Part shown: positions 2,645-63,008 of the stretch, in pieces
How positions within the stretch are numbered: position 1 is the first letter of the stretch
Layout: every line of letters starts with the position of its first letter
Source of the DNA: a phage
Reading direction: 5' to 3' (one strand)
Sequence record: PX436236.1
DNA length: 64,000 nucleotides
Program-made: the position numbers and the translations under genes
The notes under the pieces: model-generated
Databases searched by the model: none
What the model was told of the DNA's origin: nothing
What the model saw: the letters and a program-made list of their open reading frames with translations, nothing else

Positions 2645-3652
2645 TTATTTGGATACTAGTTCAATCCATACATGTCTTAATGTTTCTTTTACGCACTCAA
2701 TGAGCTGCTTTTTAACTTCAACGGGATTTTCCGCATCAGTTAATTCCAATTCTTCACGGGCGGCTTCTTCAAGGATATCCTGGACTGTCAAGCCCATCAC
2801 CTTTCCGAAATCCTTCGGCGATACTTCGCCAATCTTACTGATGACATTGTTAATGCGGTTAACAGTCACATAATCGGTGAATTGCCACATCAAATCCATA
2901 TCGTCTTGGGACAATACCACTGCAACTTTAATAGGCTTATCAGACTTTTTCTTCTCGCTGAATTTAGAGTTCTTACATTTAATCGCCACACGATTTCCGT
3001 TTGGAAGCCAGGTAGGAACATCAGGTTTCAATACAAAGCCTTCAGCCGTGAATACCTTACCTTCTACCTTAGGAATAAAATCGGTTGAGTTTGCAATAGT
3101 TAAGCCTGCGTTATCCACTGCAAAATTATAATCAGGAACAACTGAATCAAAATCATTAGGAAGTTTAATAAGGTCTTCAAAGCTACCGGTGGCCAGACAT
3201 GGAGCTACCTTAAACTTATGGATAATACAGAAGGCTTCCATCAATGTATCGGTTAGAACAGATTCTGAGCCATCTTCTTTAGTAACTCGGATATCGAACA
3301 CATAAAAGTCTTTATCACCATAGTCCACATTCTTCTGGATACCTGGCCCAGCGAATTCGCCGTAAATCTGATATGACTGGTAATTAATCGATTCGATTAG
3401 ATGTTGAACAGATTTAATAGAATCAGCATAGTTCTTAAGTACAATTTCATAGCCATAGAAATCTTCAGCAGGGAGGATAGGGCCAGTGCGCTTGGCGCAT
3501 GTGACTGCGTCACGTTCTATGATTAAACTAAAGTTGGTTCCATGAATCTTCTCACGTGCTACCCATTCACCACCAGTCAAACCGTTAGTACGGAGTTTTT
3601 CGATAAACTTACTGTTGTAGTGGTTTTCGAGACTGCTATATTTCTTGAACAT
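2645..3652 (-). CDS. rnlB: RNA ligase 2
   Basis: 335 aa; [16 protein letters not shown]... with KIHGTN nucleotidyltransferase motif; T4 Rnl2 size and synteny. Confidence 0.9.
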
Positions 3653-21974: not shown

Positions 21975-21990
21975 AAGGCCCGAAGGCCTT
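21975..21990 (-). terminator. UUCG-loop hairpin after the ligase-distal ORF
   Basis: mRNA-sense AAGGCC-UUCG-GGCCUU overlapping the stop codon, followed by UUUUCUGG. Confidence 0.55.
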
Positions 21991-25783: not shown

Positions 25784-25799
25784 GGAGGCCGAAGCCTCC
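25784..25799 (-). terminator. C(UUCG)G hairpin
   Basis: mRNA-sense GGAGGC-UUCG-GCCUCC followed by UUU and then the RBS of the next gene; likely partial terminator or stabiliser. Confidence 0.5.
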
Positions 25800-26651: not shown

Positions 26652-26679
26652 CCTTTTTTAAAGATTTAGAAACAAAAAT

Positions 26680-26697
26680 GGGACTCCGAAGAGTCCC
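26680..26697 (-). terminator. Intrinsic terminator with UUCG loop
   Basis: mRNA-sense GGGACUC-UUCG-GAGUCCC followed by AUUUUUGUUUC. Confidence 0.7.
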
Positions 26698-26702
26698 ATA
26701 AC

Positions 26703-30850: not shown

Positions 30851-30851
<1 letters not shown>
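30654..30851 (-). CDS. Hypothetical protein
   Basis: 65 aa from internal ATG overlapping the pseT stop (TAATG). Confidence 0.45.
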
Positions 30852-32091
<1,240 letters not shown>

Positions 32092-33381: not shown

Positions 33382-33410
33382 ATACTAACACGTCATGAGG
33401 AGATGTAAAC
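33382..33410 (-). promoter_or_regulatory. Early promoter cassette
   Basis: Minus-strand GTTTAC-N17-TAGTAT followed by the conserved leader and RBS for alc. Confidence 0.5.
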
Positions 33411-34558
33411 TACTCTACCACAATTTCTTTCAAATATTTTTCAGGGATTTGGGCCTTATGATTTTTCAAGAACACAGAGTTAATCTGGTCCATGACCGTA
33501 TCATAATTAATACCGCCTACGTACGCCTGCATAAGAATAGAGAACAACCCTGGGAAGTCCTTAAGGATTAGCTGTCCAGTAACGGCATAGTCTTTACGGT
33601 CGCGACCTTTGAGTTGAGAGTAAGCTGCTTCTAACAAGGCTAATGATTGTTCTAGGTAATCTAAATGGATGCGTTCAAAGGCATCGATTTTCTCGATAGC
33701 AAAGGAATCTGTACTGAACAGACCACGAAGGTCATCAGTTCCACCAGCCACTACAACTTCAAACAAACGTTCGTTGTTGTTAATGGAATCTTTGGTATGA
33801 TGCAGTGCACTGTACCAGGCGGTTTTGAGTTTAAAGAACGTACCATCTTTCAGTACAAAGATGAAACCTTCAATACCTTCTTGTTTACGGATGTTTTCTA
33901 CGAAATCACCTTCAGCGAGGTCATAGCTTTCAACCAAATGCTTACGCAGGGCCCCATCTTTAAACAATTCAGCATACGGAATATATTCACCTGTTTCATT
34001 ATTACGAACGTTTAACAGGATGAGGTTTGTTTCTTGGTAAGCCAGCACGATACGGTTGGTAGGTGCTACATATTCAAGGTTGCAGGTATACCCAGCTTTG
34101 GTGATTTCTTCTAGACGTGCGGCAAAAGCCTCGTTCTCAGGGAGACGAAGGAACCGTAAAGAATCATGCACCATTGATGAATGGATAGAGCCTTTAGATT
34201 TAACAGAAAGATACTGTCGGTCCATGAATGTAGAAATCAGAGAACCATCTTCCTTAGCCATTACGAGGTCGATATTTTCTGGCGACAAATCTAGACCGAT
34301 AGTCATAGGGTTTTCGTCGAGGTTAAAGAACTTTTGCATAGGACGAGCGGCAATACGTACAGGACCTTTCTCGTCCATTTCAAACATAATGCCTCGGCAC
34401 TCTAGTGCGCCGTCTTCCAACCAATCACTGTATGATGCGTAGTTATAACTAAAGATGCGATAGTTGACTCCTAGAGCACTCTGAAAGTCTTTAAAGAAGA
34501 ACTTAGATTTAGTCGAGTTTTTAACCAGGGCCATCAAGTTATCATATAATTCAATCAT
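33410..34558 (-). CDS. rnlA: RNA ligase 1
   Basis: 382 aa; strong match to remembered T4 Rnl1 (YRIFSYNYASYSDWL, ECRGIMFEMD, RIVLAYQE). Confidence 0.9.
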   Translation of the reverse strand: MIELYDNLMALVKNSTKSKFFFKDFQSALGVNYRIFSYNYASYSDWLEDGALECRGIMFEMDEKGPVRIAARPMQKFFNLDENPMTIGLDLSPENIDLVMAKEDGSLISTFMDRQYLSVKSKGSIHSSMVHDSLRFLRLPENEAFAARLEEITKAGYTCNLEYVAPTNRIVLAYQETNLILLNVRNNETGEYIPYAELFKDGALRKHLVESYDLAEGDFVENIRKQEGIEGFIFVLKDGTFFKLKTAWYSALHHTKDSINNNERLFEVVVAGGTDDLRGLFSTDSFAIEKIDAFERIHLDYLEQSLALLEAAYSQLKGRDRKDYAVTGQLILKDFPGLFSILMQAYVGGINYDTVMDQINSVFLKNHKAQIPEKYLKEIVVE

Positions 34559-34976: not shown

Positions 34977-34990
34977 GGGGCCGAAGCCCC
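34977..34990 (-). promoter_or_regulatory. C(UUCG)G hairpin upstream of the denA start
   Basis: mRNA-sense GGGGC-UUCG-GCCCC between the nrdB stop and the denA ATG; no U tract, so likely a stabilising or attenuating structure. Confidence 0.45.
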
Positions 34991-41365: not shown

Positions 41366-41385
41366 GGGAAGACCGAAGTCTTCCC
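41366..41385 (-). terminator. Intrinsic terminator after gene 32
   Basis: mRNA-sense GGGAAGAC-UUCG-GUCUUCCC followed by UUUUU. Confidence 0.7.
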
Positions 41386-48722: not shown

Positions 48723-49844
48723 ATGGAAAGATTTATGGCAGAATTTGGACAAGGATATGTCCAGGTTCCTACATTATCTGAAAACAATGCTGTAAGGTAT
48801 AAACTTAGTATAGCGGGTAGTTGTACTAAGTCTACCACAAAAGCATATGTTAAATTTCAAGATGGGAACTTCGGTTCCCAGAATTTTCAAAATGGATTAA
48901 ACCTTATAGAAATTGATGTTAGTGCTGAACCTAAAATAGTGGCTAACAAAACTTATAGTTTTACAAAAGATTTTGATGTTATTTCTGAAGCTTTTATAAC
49001 GTATATAAATTCTATACCGGCCAATAGAATAGTTTGTTTAGTATCTTCTGGTAGATTAAATGCTTCACAAAAACTTATCGATTGGTTCCGTGCAGCAGGA
49101 AGTACCGCATTCCCGTCTAAATGGTTGATAGACCGGTTTGAGCCGTCTTATTCTGCATTTTATGTTTCAGGAAGGAATGCTATAGTAATGGAACATGTGC
49201 TTTATAATGATGGGGTATTGGTCGAAGATGTTTCTACTCCATTAGAAGTGGTATTTGATGATATCAGTGATGTCGGTGGTACAGGATATCCTGTCAGAAT
49301 TGTTGAAGACGAAAGCACTTATCTAAGCAATGATGGAGATGAAATTAAGCGATTTCCTACCGAATCTCCTACCACCCCATTAACAGATTATAACATGAAG
49401 CCAGGTGAATTCTTTTACCTTAAGTTTCAATTAATGCGCGACCAAGCTTTAAAAGACGTAGGGACTTCTCAGATGTCTGTTAGATTTTTTAATGCCTCAG
49501 GTGCTTTAACCGGGACAGTTAATATGGACGTTCCTTCCAACGTTCCTGCCGGTGCATGGATGACATTTGAACGGGTTGTAATGGTTCCTGAAGGTACTAC
49601 AGACTTTACCCTTTATGCCAGAAAAACCGCTTCGGCTGGCCAAGGCGGAGTTCGAAATGTTATGTTCGGTGAGATATCTGAATCAGAACCTCAGCCAAAA
49701 CCTGCTGAATTTGGTGTTAACGGTATTCGTATGAACTTTGGTACGGAAACTAAAAATATGGGTACTACCATAGCCCAGCTATATGATAAAACAGGCACTA
49801 AACCTGGTCAGGTTTGGGTCGCTGAATTTAGAGAAAAATATTAA
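48723..49844 (+). CDS. 35: Long tail fibre hinge protein gp35
   Basis: 373 aa (T4 gp35 is about 372 aa); RBS AAGAGG. Confidence 0.8.
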   Translation: MERFMAEFGQGYVQVPTLSENNAVRYKLSIAGSCTKSTTKAYVKFQDGNFGSQNFQNGLNLIEIDVSAEPKIVANKTYSFTKDFDVISEAFITYINSIPANRIVCLVSSGRLNASQKLIDWFRAAGSTAFPSKWLIDRFEPSYSAFYVSGRNAIVMEHVLYNDGVLVEDVSTPLEVVFDDISDVGGTGYPVRIVEDESTYLSNDGDEIKRFPTESPTTPLTDYNMKPGEFFYLKFQLMRDQALKDVGTSQMSVRFFNASGALTGTVNMDVPSNVPAGAWMTFERVVMVPEGTTDFTLYARKTASAGQGGVRNVMFGEISESEPQPKPAEFGVNGIRMNFGTETKNMGTTIAQLYDKTGTKPGQVWVAEFREKY

Positions 49845-49860
49845 GGAACCTTCGGGTTCC
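49845..49860 (+). terminator. Intrinsic terminator after gene 35
   Basis: GGAACC-UUCG-GGUUCC followed by UUUUUCGUUUUC. Confidence 0.7.
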
Positions 49861-49878
49861 TTTTTCGTTTTCTACGGC

Positions 49879-53896: not shown

Positions 53897-53901
53897 TAAG
53901 A

Positions 53902-53915
53902 GGGGCTTCGGCCCC
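53902..53915 (+). promoter_or_regulatory. C(UUCG)G stem-loop between genes 37 and 38
   Basis: GGGGC-UUCG-GCCCC with no following U tract; the gp38 RBS GGAGG follows immediately. Confidence 0.45.
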
Positions 53916-53927
53916 TTGGAGGTTTAT

Positions 53928-58130: not shown

Positions 58131-58154
58131 TCTTTTTGCACTAAACCTAAAAAA

Positions 58155-58170
58155 GGAACCCGAAGGTTCC
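58155..58170 (-). terminator. Intrinsic terminator with UUCG loop
   Basis: mRNA-sense GGAACC-UUCG-GGUUCC followed by UUUUUU. Confidence 0.7.
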
Positions 58171-58275
58171 TTACTTTTTAAAGTTGGCTGCTATTAAACC
58201 TATAGCTAAGCCTGTCGCCAGGCCTAGGATAACAGCAAAGATACAGAGTAACAAGAACTCGACTCCAAGGCTCAT
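58171..58275 (-). CDS. Small hydrophobic peptide downstream of gene 52
   Basis: 34 aa single-TM-like ORF (MSLGVEFLLLCIFAVILGLATGLAIGLIAANFKK); ATGA overlap with the gp52 stop. Confidence 0.4.
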   Translation of the reverse strand: MSLGVEFLLLCIFAVILGLATGLAIGLIAANFKK

Positions 58276-59600
58276 AGAGCCTCCAAATCTTTAACATACT
58301 CAGTTACAACATCAGTGGTTTTCCAATATTGATGCTCTTCTTTCTTAGCCTTGGCTTCCAAAGCCAGTTTCTTGGCTTCATCAGAAGTGATATGGAAAAT
58401 GTTCATGGCCACTAGTTTATCAGCGTATTCGCCATAGACTTTATTACTAGCCAATTCTTCGGTTAAAACCTTGCGAGTCTTACCTTGGATAACCACTACA
58501 CCATCAATAACATCTTTGATGAATGTGGCTTTAGCCAATGCCAGTTTGAAAGCTTCTTCAGTTTCGATGATTTTACCATCAATACGTTTCTGTACAAAGG
58601 TCTTACGGACCTCAACGAAATCACGAATCAGTTCAACTGCATCTTCGTAAACCTTAAGTTTACCTTTTTCATTAATGACGGTCAGGTTTTGTGAACGACG
58701 TTCGATTAACCCGAAGTCCTTCATGATTTTTTCGTGCTTCTTGTTTTCTTCAGTAGGCAATTCATATTCTTTACGAATCTTAACCTTGAAGCCGAAACCG
58801 TTCTCGTCACAATCATCATCATATGTGATATACCCTTTGTCTTCCAGAGGGTCTAATATCTTGGCCACATACGTTTCACGGTCGTATTTGTATGGGATTT
58901 CCGTGATATGCATTTGGGTTCGAGATGTGAACTTATAGGTTCCACGAATCTCATAACTACCAGGTTCAATCTCAACAACATCACCGCGGAATTCAGGATA
59001 AGCCACTTTAGGTTTGGTTACGCGTTTTTCCTGAAGAACTTGCAATACAGTTTTCTTAACAGAATCAAAACTATGAGGAAGAATATTAGTTGCATAACCA
59101 GTTGCAATACCGGAAACGCCATTAAGAAGAACAGTAGGAATAATAGGCAGATAAAAAGCCGGTGGCTTATGTTCAACATCCGCATGAACCGGAGCATATT
59201 CTGTGTCCTTATAAACTTTTGCAAAGTTACTTCCAATACGAGCAAAAATATAACGAGAGGCTGCAGCTTTTTGAACCAATCGGGAGCCAAAGTTACCTTG
59301 ACCGTCTAACAATGGATAGTTGTTGTTCCATGTGTTAGCCATCAAAGCCCCTGCTTCCTGAGCAGAACCTTCACCGTGGTGATATCCGAGGTCGGCTACA
59401 CCACCAGCGATAGAAGCCAGTTTGTGGAATTTTTCTTTATTACCACGAGCCATATCAAGACAACGAGCCACTACAAAACGTTGTACAGGTTTAAAGCCAT
59501 CAATCATATTTGGAATGGCTCGGTTTTCGACAGTATACATTGCATAAGCCAATGCTTCGTTGTCGATAATACTTTTTAAACCACGAGATGTTAATTCCAT
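58272..59600 (-). CDS. 52: DNA topoisomerase II medium subunit gp52
   Basis: 442 aa, same length as T4 gp52; type II topoisomerase A-subunit-like N-terminus. Confidence 0.85.
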   Translation of the reverse strand: MELTSRGLKSIIDNEALAYAMYTVENRAIPNMIDGFKPVQRFVVARCLDMARGNKEKFHKLASIAGGVADLGYHHGEGSAQEAGALMANTWNNNYPLLDGQGNFGSRLVQKAAASRYIFARIGSNFAKVYKDTEYAPVHADVEHKPPAFYLPIIPTVLLNGVSGIATGYATNILPHSFDSVKKTVLQVLQEKRVTKPKVAYPEFRGDVVEIEPGSYEIRGTYKFTSRTQMHITEIPYKYDRETYVAKILDPLEDKGYITYDDDCDENGFGFKVKIRKEYELPTEENKKHEKIMKDFGLIERRSQNLTVINEKGKLKVYEDAVELIRDFVEVRKTFVQKRIDGKIIETEEAFKLALAKATFIKDVIDGVVVIQGKTRKVLTEELASNKVYGEYADKLVAMNIFHITSDEAKKLALEAKAKKEEHQYWKTTDVVTEYVKDLEAL

Positions 59601-59604
59601 AATT

Positions 59605-59745
59605 TTACCATACTAGTGAATGAATAGCCATAATAACATCGGAAATAAAAAGCACAACTTGGATAAGTCCGAACATTACTCCGTAATACAGCGCTACTAA
59701 TAATGCAGCAAGGGCTAAAGAGTAGCCCAAGATTTTATTAATCAT
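59605..59745 (-). CDS. Small membrane protein
   Basis: 46 aa hydrophobic ORF from internal ATG; overlaps the upstream small ORF stop. Confidence 0.4.
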   Translation of the reverse strand: MINKILGYSLALAALLVALYYGVMFGLIQVVLFISDVIMAIHSLVW

Positions 59746-59899
59746 TTTTAATCGTCTTAAGTAAACCGACAAAAGTAGAAAGAACCCAACCAATAAGCAG
59801 AAAACTTAAGAATATCGGACCAGGGGTCCACACACCTAAAAAGAAGCAAACTGAACAGACTATAGCCATAATAAGTTCAATAAAAACTAGGATAACCAT
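59738..59899 (-). CDS. Ac-like small membrane protein
   Basis: 53 aa hydrophobic ORF below the track cutoff with RBS GAGGAAAAT, in the T4 ac position (T4 Ac is about 51 aa). Confidence 0.45.
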   Translation of the reverse strand: MVILVFIELIMAIVCSVCFFLGVWTPGPIFLSFLLIGWVLSTFVGLLKTIKND

Positions 59900-59909
59900 A
59901 TTTTCCTCA

Positions 59910-59987
59910 TTAGCGTCCGAAGACGCCTTTAGTTTTAAGATTGTTACGATAGAACTGCATCACATGCTCGTTATGGAAATTACTCAT
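59910..59987 (-). CDS. stp: Stp peptide
   Basis: 25 aa [28 protein letters not shown], matching remembered T4 Stp; TAATG overlap with the ndd stop. Confidence 0.75.
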
Positions 59988-60436
59988 TAGTAAGCCTGCA
60001 GGATGAATTTAAAGTTATCAGCCAACATACGGTTCATTTCTTCCAGTGTCTGGAGGTCGGAACTATGATTACGAGTGAAAGCCATTGCAATTTGACCCTT
60101 ACCAAAACCTGTAGTCAGGGGTTTCATCTTAGAAGCCGGTACATAAAGAACTTCATACACAACACCGTTCACTGCCATAGTGCGAGCTGATTGAGAACGT
60201 TTCTTACGAATGTTAGCCACGATACCGTCGAGCCCTTGGGCCGAACGTTGATTACCGACATAAAAACGAGCCGCTACGACACGAGAATCAGCACCACCTT
60301 TAACAAAGAAGTAGAAGCCTGGTTGAGCAGAGATTTCTTTAGAAGGTTTACCATTTTGGTATTCACCGTTCTTAACATAAGCAACAGTAGTAGCACCAGC
60401 AGACAGAACGTTACGGCGAGTCATATAAGTATTCAT
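59987..60436 (-). CDS. ndd: Nucleoid disruption protein Ndd
   Basis: 149 aa; C-terminal half near-identical to remembered T4 Ndd ([56 protein letters not shown]). Confidence 0.9.
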
Positions 60437-60485
60437 ATCAATTTCCTCAGTAGATTAATGTTTTGTTATCCAGTCAACGAGAACC

Positions 60486-60514
60486 ATTATAACATGATTC
60501 TCGAGGTTGTAAAC
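60486..60514 (-). promoter_or_regulatory. Early promoter for ndd
   Basis: Minus-strand GTTTAC-N17-TATAAT (perfect -10). Confidence 0.6.
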
Positions 60515-60858
60515 TATTTTTGTAGCTGTTCTAAAATAAATCCGCTGGTGTAAAGGCTTGCATTATACAGGCGGTCAAGAGATAACGAATCCAATCCATA
60601 AGCTTCACGAATTGCATTGATAACACTTTCATAACTTGTATAATAAACGTCACGATAATCGCGGTCCATAGTCATGCGGAACTTAATAAATTTGTAGAAA
60701 CCAGTTTCAGGGTCCTGATAGAATGCAAATTCTGCAGACGCTAAATTTTTAAGGTTAACAGCTTTTGTGTCACCCGAATAACTTAAATCAAATGTTTCTG
60801 ACATGCTAATCTGTTTAAAGAACATAATGTTGCGATTACCAAAAAATAATTTAGACAT
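60514..60858 (-). CDS. Hypothetical protein (ndd.1 region)
   Basis: 114 aa from internal ATG with RBS AAGGAAAA. Confidence 0.5.
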   Translation of the reverse strand: MSKLFFGNRNIMFFKQISMSETFDLSYSGDTKAVNLKNLASAEFAFYQDPETGFYKFIKFRMTMDRDYRDVYYTSYESVINAIREAYGLDSLSLDRLYNASLYTSGFILEQLQK

Positions 60859-62992: not shown

Positions 62993-63008
62993 GGAGGCCG
63001 AAGCCTCC
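62993..63008 (-). promoter_or_regulatory. C(UUCG)G hairpin after rIIB
   Basis: mRNA-sense GGAGGC-UUCG-GCCUCC, identical to the hairpin at 25784-25799; no U tract; next RBS follows immediately. Confidence 0.5.

Follow-up and report, generated by a model that had tools for sequence, protein, structure and literature searches.

A probable 25-codon orthologue of the T4 PrrC activator gene stp in a Dhakavirus

Introduction

Does the very short reading frame that follows ndd in a T-even phage genome encode Stp, the peptide that activates the host anticodon nuclease PrrC, and does the peptide account for all that is conserved at this locus? In phage T4, the 26-residue Stp is necessary and sufficient for activation of the latent tRNA-Lys anticodon nuclease PrrC, and it relieves restriction by the type Ic systems EcoprrI and EcoR124I, not by type Ia (PMC3014915, a review whose statements on Stp summarize Penner et al. 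1995). Loss-of-function mutations cluster at residues 4–14, inside an N-proximal functional region of 18 residues, and deleting the eight C-terminal codons lowers both activities only moderately (PMC3014915). The tRNA that PrrC cleaves is healed and sealed by Pnkp and Rnl1, which acts as a counter-defense (PMC3014915). The gene is not essential to T4; when repair is defective, prr+ hosts select for stp-null mutants (PMC3014915). The mechanism by which Stp inhibits EcoprrI is given as unknown even in recent literature (PMC12707154).

The locus studied here lies in a 64,000-nt stretch of phage DNA (record PX436236.1), which we call the window. A preliminary description of it reported a hidden 25-codon stp gene overlapping the ndd stop codon, identified the peptide as T4 Stp, and counted the gene with pseT, rnlA and rnlB as a dispersed counter-defense set. 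The window belongs to a Dhakavirus: the 1-kb region around stp shares 99.2% identity with phage QL01 and 98.7% with Bp7. We conclude that the short ORF is very probably the orthologue of T4 stp in a Dhakavirus, a T-even phage of the JS98/QL01 type, as supported by sequence, family profile and gene order.

Results

Identification of stp

The stp ORF occupies positions 59910–59987 on the minus strand and consists of ATG, 24 further codons and TAA, directly followed by a second in-frame stop, TGA (tandem TAA TGA). An AGG lies 7 nt 5′ of the ATG and is kept in T4. The ATG overlaps the TAA of ndd by one base (TAATG), with base 59987 common to both ORFs as first described. The plus-strand reading of 59910–59987 was rejected; its translation is meaningless, and the gene is on the minus strand.

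The encoded peptide scores 72.1 bits (E=2e-20) against Pfam PF08133, the anticodon nuclease activator family, aligning to profile positions 1–25 of 26 and lying above the curated threshold (cut-off 25 bits). It also matches PHROG 6763 (‘activator of host PrrC lysyl-tRNA endonuclease’) with E=1.6e-20. In an alignment to T4 Stp (AAD42660.1; AF158101.6, 165505..165585), which the preliminary description had proposed as a check, all 25 residues are identical, the N-proximal 18 among them (18/18), and nucleotide identity is 97.3% over 75 nt; the peptide first given was correct. The two differ in length. The T4 codon for Q26, CAG, is TAA in the window, directly before T4’s own TGA, so that the window peptide has 25 residues and T4 Stp 26. 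No solved structure of Stp or a relative turned up in the PDB, even with hits allowed up to E=10.

Short ORFs abound here, with 42 of at least 20 aa in the ORF list overlapping the 3-kb stretch around stp, and the identification therefore rests on homology and not on ORF length. That abundance is what a chance ORF without coding function would have in its favor. We regard a chance ORF as ruled out, with a probability close to nil, by the two profile matches, by 100% identity to an experimentally characterized peptide, and by its retention as an ORF in hundreds of genomes and, with different codons, in unrelated phage families.

Gene neighborhood

The genes around stp are all on the minus strand. 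Upstream is ndd (59987..60436), encoding the nucleoid disruption protein of 149 aa (Pfam Phage_T4_Ndd, E=1.1e-68). Downstream are a membrane-like ORF of 53 aa in the place that ac has in T4 (59738..59899; PHROG 9347, function not known), gene 52.1 (59605..59745; 46 aa, DUF7396, Pfam PF24129, E=5.9e-22), which is called 52.1 in KIT01, QL01 and T4, and gene 52 (58272..59600), encoding the topoisomerase II medium subunit of 442 aa (Pfam DNA_topoisoIV, E=4e-75). When the window ORFs are compared with the annotation of T4 and KIT01, the order ndd-stp-(ac position)-52.1-52 is that of T4, with stp in the same slot upstream of the ac position, 52.1 and 52. A difference from T4 is that the ORF just downstream of stp is not homologous to ac: BLASTP found no similarity between the 53-aa protein and T4 Ac, and Pfam gave no match to it. 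It is a non-orthologous replacement at a conserved slot, and only 56 records matched it.

A consensus scan places a sigma-70 promoter-like site, TTTACA-16-TATAAT with an extended TG, 5′ of ndd at 60486..60513 on the minus strand (11/12 positions). It is a candidate promoter for an ndd-stp-...-52 unit, by consensus match only. At the other end, 3′ of gene 52, the terminator scan and hairpin script find a C(UUCG)G hairpin, AAGGAACCTTCGGGTTCCTT, which with the T run after it resembles a terminator (58153..58172, minus strand). Positions 59500–60600 contain no Rfam family; the sole match was a chance snoRNA at 18.8 bits versus a gathering score of 90.

Gene 52 has a 5′ end that is 51 nt longer in WG01 (L014 1101-1452) and several other Dhakaviruses, reading MADVIDTLFKQALDVYDDSFTRRDLKSIIDNE... 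versus MELTSRGLKSIIDNE... in the window (from 59600 downward). This explains why nucleotide alignments to these relatives fall into two pieces.

Stp in other T-even phages

A tblastn search finds the Stp peptide at ≥99% identity in 439 phage records. The 25-aa form is common to the Dhakaviruses QL01, WG01, KIT01 and IME341, and the 26-residue Stp of RB55 has the same sequence as that of T4. Other T-even phages have more divergent versions. The Gaprivervirus/JS98-type Stp (VR25, YP_009210023.1) shares the genomic slot, the N-terminal 11 residues, a GVFGR tail and the 3′ hairpin described below, with a UUUG or UUCG loop, but it has 26 residues and is 80% identical to window Stp; in VR25, stp comes directly after ndd without overlapping its stop codon. 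The T2-type Stp (27 residues) begins with the same 18 residues as window Stp but has a different C-terminal tail and no hairpin.

Whether the gene is hidden depends on the record consulted. It is not annotated in the closest records, QL01, Bp7 and WG01, as the word implies, but it is annotated in KIT01, a Dhakavirus with the same 25-aa ORF, and in T4, RB55 and VR25. What had been called hidden is an annotation gap, not an unknown gene; the gene and its arrangement are already known. Automatic naming near stp is often at fault as well, as in the public records OL964745.1, OP856590.1 and PP693301.1, with ‘naphthalene 1,2-dioxygenase’ placed over the stp locus and small neighboring ORFs named ‘clamp loader small subunit’ and ‘recombination endonuclease subunit’.

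The locus is mosaic in several relatives. In WG01, stp is unchanged. IME341 (L016 714-957) has an intact stp after an inserted 57-aa membrane-like ORF between ndd and stp. JS98 (L015 716-1559) has an extra 57-aa ORF between ndd and an intact Gaprivervirus-type stp, with a different ORF at the ac position; UPEC01 (L012), which also has the Gaprivervirus type, apparently has a 57-aa ORF 5′ of stp too, judging from its upstream sequence. Further on in JS98, a 52.1 fragment is joined through a GAGTAAT microhomology to a relic of T4/Dhaka-type stp that has no start codon and has its F4 codon changed to S. This relic is followed by a window-type ORF and then by 52.1.

Stp-like ORFs in siphoviruses

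Stp-like ORFs of 25–30 codons were also seen in the Kagunaviruses Ro145clw and ZCEC5, the Tunavirus Lg3, the Tlsvirus Stevie, the Deseoctovirus S192 and the Skatevirus seszw (L004:2501-2578, L005:822-914, L006:2501-2581, L007:2501-2581, L008:2501-2584, L009:2501-2584). They match PHROG 6763 at 1e-13 to 1e-15 and share a core of the form [SI]-[NS]-[FW]-H-N-E-H-[VI]-M-Q-[FW]-Y-R; most are unannotated. Unlike window stp, they stand in an unrelated genome context, and their tails diverge except in Kagunavirus. There the ORF has 25 codons in Ro145clw and about 30 in ZCEC5, and both peptides are 88–92% identical to T4 Stp; the Kagunavirus gene encodes a GVFGK tail in different codons and has no hairpin. 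For the Tlsvirus Stevie protein (AIX12335.1), the annotators had noted the similarity to Stp, and 1.2 kb downstream of its gene is one for a polynucleotide kinase. In the literature searched, we found no paper on Stp in Drexlerviridae and no functional test of the siphovirus peptides.

Across 11 diverse T-even and siphovirus versions of Stp, the residues H5, N6, E7, H8, M10, Q11, R14 and K18 are invariant. This core agrees with the published mutational hot region, residues 4–14 (PMC3014915).

Intactness of the window gene

The window peptide is one residue shorter than that of T4, and the premature TAA could be read as a first step of loss, in which case stp would be a decaying or untranslated relic from which no active Stp is made. 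A gene that is dispensable in T4, and whose null mutants can be selected on prr+ hosts, might decay in this way, and JS98 carries a true relic. However, the remaining 25 codons are intact and encode a protein identical to that of T4, and the start codon, the AGG and the coupling context are all conserved. The shorter form is shared by several Dhakaviruses, the Kagunavirus versions also have 25 residues, and T4 Stp tolerates a far longer C-terminal deletion with only a moderate loss of activity. The CAG-to-TAA change also keeps the outer pair of the hairpin stem, as G-U. We therefore consider a relic very improbable. The preliminary description had named absence or disruption of the ORF in close relatives as evidence against its reading; all close relatives examined, mosaic variants included, have an intact ORF. 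The window stp is a real and ordinary gene, and probably a working one.

The C(UUCG)G hairpin

The 3′ coding end of stp was first described as a C(UUCG)G hairpin, and folding bears this out. The element (59912..59927, minus strand; GGCGUC-UUCG-GACGCU, by fold and stem-extension script) has six pairs with G-U outermost and a C-G closing pair, and folds at -9.3 kcal/mol (z=-3.1; 3 of 200 shuffles were as good). It covers codons G21–R25 (GGC GUC UUC GGA CGC) and the first base of the stop codon. The GAGG ribosome-binding site of the next ORF lies 4 nt downstream. The whole 106-nt stp RNA folds no better than its shuffles (z=-0.17). In T4 the hairpin covers the same codons, and its outer pair is G-C, giving -11.5 kcal/mol. 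It is kept with wobble changes in T4 and Gaprivervirus and is absent in T2 and Kagunavirus.

The first description of C(UUCG)G hairpins came from T4 mRNA (Tuerk et al. 1988, as told in PMC4371310), and the stp hairpin is of the T4 type, with a UUCG loop, a C-G closing pair and a G+C-rich stem. The motif is enriched in the window, with 38 copies of CTTCGG versus 20.2 expected, a count not attained in any of 100 shuffles. Twelve of these copies top a stem of 4 or more pairs, the one in stp included, and several are closely followed by a T run or by a GAGG ribosome-binding site. Other CTTCGG hairpins in the window are at 21975-21990, 25784-25799, 26678-26699, 34977-34990, 41366-41385, 48863-48880, 49843-49862, 53900-53917, 58153-58172 and 62993-63008. 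Two stems each occur twice in identical form: AAGGAACCTTCGGGTTCCTT at 49843 (+) and 58153 (-), and GGAGGCTTCGGCCTCC at 25784 (-) and 62993 (-).

An intrinsic terminator on the coding strand was considered for the stp hairpin and rejected, since there is no T run; the minus-strand stem is followed by AATGAGGAAAAT / AAUGAGGAAAAU. One record (G9062) annotates a putative terminator at this hairpin. On the plus strand, the complement of the hairpin, GCGTCCGAAGACGC (59913-59926), precedes CTTTAGTTTT and has a terminator-like score. There it could end antisense transcripts that would otherwise run into the early region.

Most likely, the stp hairpin is a general structural or stabilizing element of T-even mRNA that also leaves the ribosome-binding site of the next gene accessible. 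From the comparison of versions we infer that the GVFG tail is selected as protein and that the hairpin overlies it only in T-even phages and can be lost, because Kagunavirus encodes GVFGK in other codons without a hairpin and T2 has no hairpin either.

Nucleotide conservation at stp

Conservation of stp extends to its codons. Between the window and the T4-type phage RB55, the codons of stp that encode the same amino acid are identical in 23 of 25 cases, versus 50–59% in ndd, the ac-position ORF and gene 52, and 73% in 52.1. We compared the genes further with blastn queries of equal length (78 nt) against the phage collection. The stp query matched 607 records, 543 of them at ≥90% identity. 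The conserved part of gene 52 matched 742 (45 at ≥90%), 52.1 matched 580 (50 at ≥90%), the middle of ndd matched 50 (31 at ≥90%), and the ac-position ORF matched 56 (50 at ≥90%). Sliding identity to T4 is 0.9–1.0 at about 60050–59900, falls to about 0.5 across the ac-position ORF and is about 0.87 in 52.1. The conserved island thus runs from ~50 nt before the end of ndd through stp to the next ribosome-binding site, with flanks 50–80% identical to T4. It ends exactly at the ATG of the next ORF, beyond which the sequence cannot be aligned to T4.

These observations raise the possibility that the peptide reading is right but incomplete. The stp DNA or RNA might have a role of its own, as a homology arm together with 52.1 or as an mRNA processing or stability element, or the sequence might have spread through T-even phages in a recent recombinational sweep. 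The codon identity, the skewed record counts and the sharp edge of the island all point this way, as does the junction of the JS98 cassette inside stp. Kagunavirus makes the same peptide with other codons, which argues that the peptide alone does not force the codons. Against a nucleic-acid role, T2 retains only the N-terminal core, with its entire C-terminal part and the hairpin replaced, and the hairpin is therefore dispensable; nor does the stp RNA match an Rfam family or fold better than shuffled sequence over its full length. In a sample of 25 codons, these data do not separate a sweep from an RNA constraint or a recombination arm. We consider this fuller reading, taken as a whole, fairly unlikely.

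Recombinational exchange in a mosaic locus is the most economical account of the island, and an added RNA- or DNA-level constraint on stp is possible. A more specific proposal is that the stp block (~60050–59900) and 52.1 act as a homology arm or mRNA element through which small, unrelated ORFs for membrane proteins can be exchanged at the ac position. The block would for this reason be near-invariant across T-even genera, and JS98 would be a frozen intermediate. We consider this proposal distinctly unlikely.

tRNA repair genes and predicted function

The genes for repair of the cleaved tRNA are found where the preliminary description had placed them, both on the minus strand. The pseT gene (30851..31759) encodes a polynucleotide 5′-kinase/3′-phosphatase of 302 aa, with a P-loop kinase domain at the N-terminus (AAA_33, residues 6–149, E=2e-21) and a phosphatase domain at the C-terminus (HAD_PNKP, residues 160–302, E=3.7e-59). 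The rnlA gene (gene 63; 33410..34558) encodes RNA ligase 1 of 382 aa, with a nucleotidyltransferase domain (RNA_lig_T4_1, residues 53–246, E=3.3e-23) and T4_Rnl1_C (residues 256–375, E=6.5e-46). RNA ligase 2 (335 aa) is encoded by rnlB at 2645..3652, also on the minus strand (RNA_ligase, E=4.1e-20; T4_Rnl2_C, E=8.5e-19). Judged by these Pfam domains, the window encodes the full T4 set of PrrC trigger, healing enzyme and sealing enzyme. ARAGORN found no tRNA or tmRNA gene in the whole 64,000-nt window, and hence no phage tRNA-Lys that could act as a decoy.

To call these four genes a counter-defense set needs qualification. All four are encoded, and this part of the description stands. Stp, however, is an anti-restriction peptide and the trigger of PrrC, not a repair enzyme, and we know of no established role for Rnl2 in the PrrC tRNA-repair pathway.

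Window Stp should work as T4 Stp does, since the 18 N-proximal residues are unchanged and only Q26 is absent. The loss of Q26 should not matter, given the moderate effect of removing eight C-terminal codons in T4. By analogy with T4, stp would be transcribed early with ndd and then translated, possibly coupled to termination of ndd. The N-proximal 18 residues of Stp would act on type Ic complexes (EcoprrI, EcoR124I) and block DNA restriction. In hosts with prrC inside the hsd locus, this would unmask the latent PrrC, which would cut tRNA-Lys 5′ of the wobble base. Pnkp, from pseT, would heal the ends and Rnl1, from rnlA, would reseal the tRNA, allowing infection to proceed.

Discussion

T-even DNA is normally hypermodified, which makes the need for an anti-type-I peptide puzzling. 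Stp, PrrC, Pnkp and Rnl1 are the textbook case of an anti-restriction factor that is sensed by a back-up abortive-infection nuclease and countered by RNA repair. The same logic, in which an inhibitor of type I restriction-modification triggers an abortive-infection effector, applies to T7 Ocr with PARIS and to Ronin, and recent work places Stp-PrrC beside them (bioRxiv 10.1101/2023.04.06.535777; PMC12409349). The proteins and effectors are unrelated, and the analogy to Stp is functional only.

Finding stp in a Dhakavirus adds nothing conceptual to this picture. The invariant eight-residue core, the nucleotide island and the JS98 relic form a compact comparative data set, and we offer them as modest leads, not as discoveries. 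The practical value lies in annotation. Most deposited T-even genomes either lack a call for this 25-codon gene or carry a wrong name over it, and it should be called wherever the host range of a T-even phage meant for therapy is predicted on prr+ or type Ic hosts.
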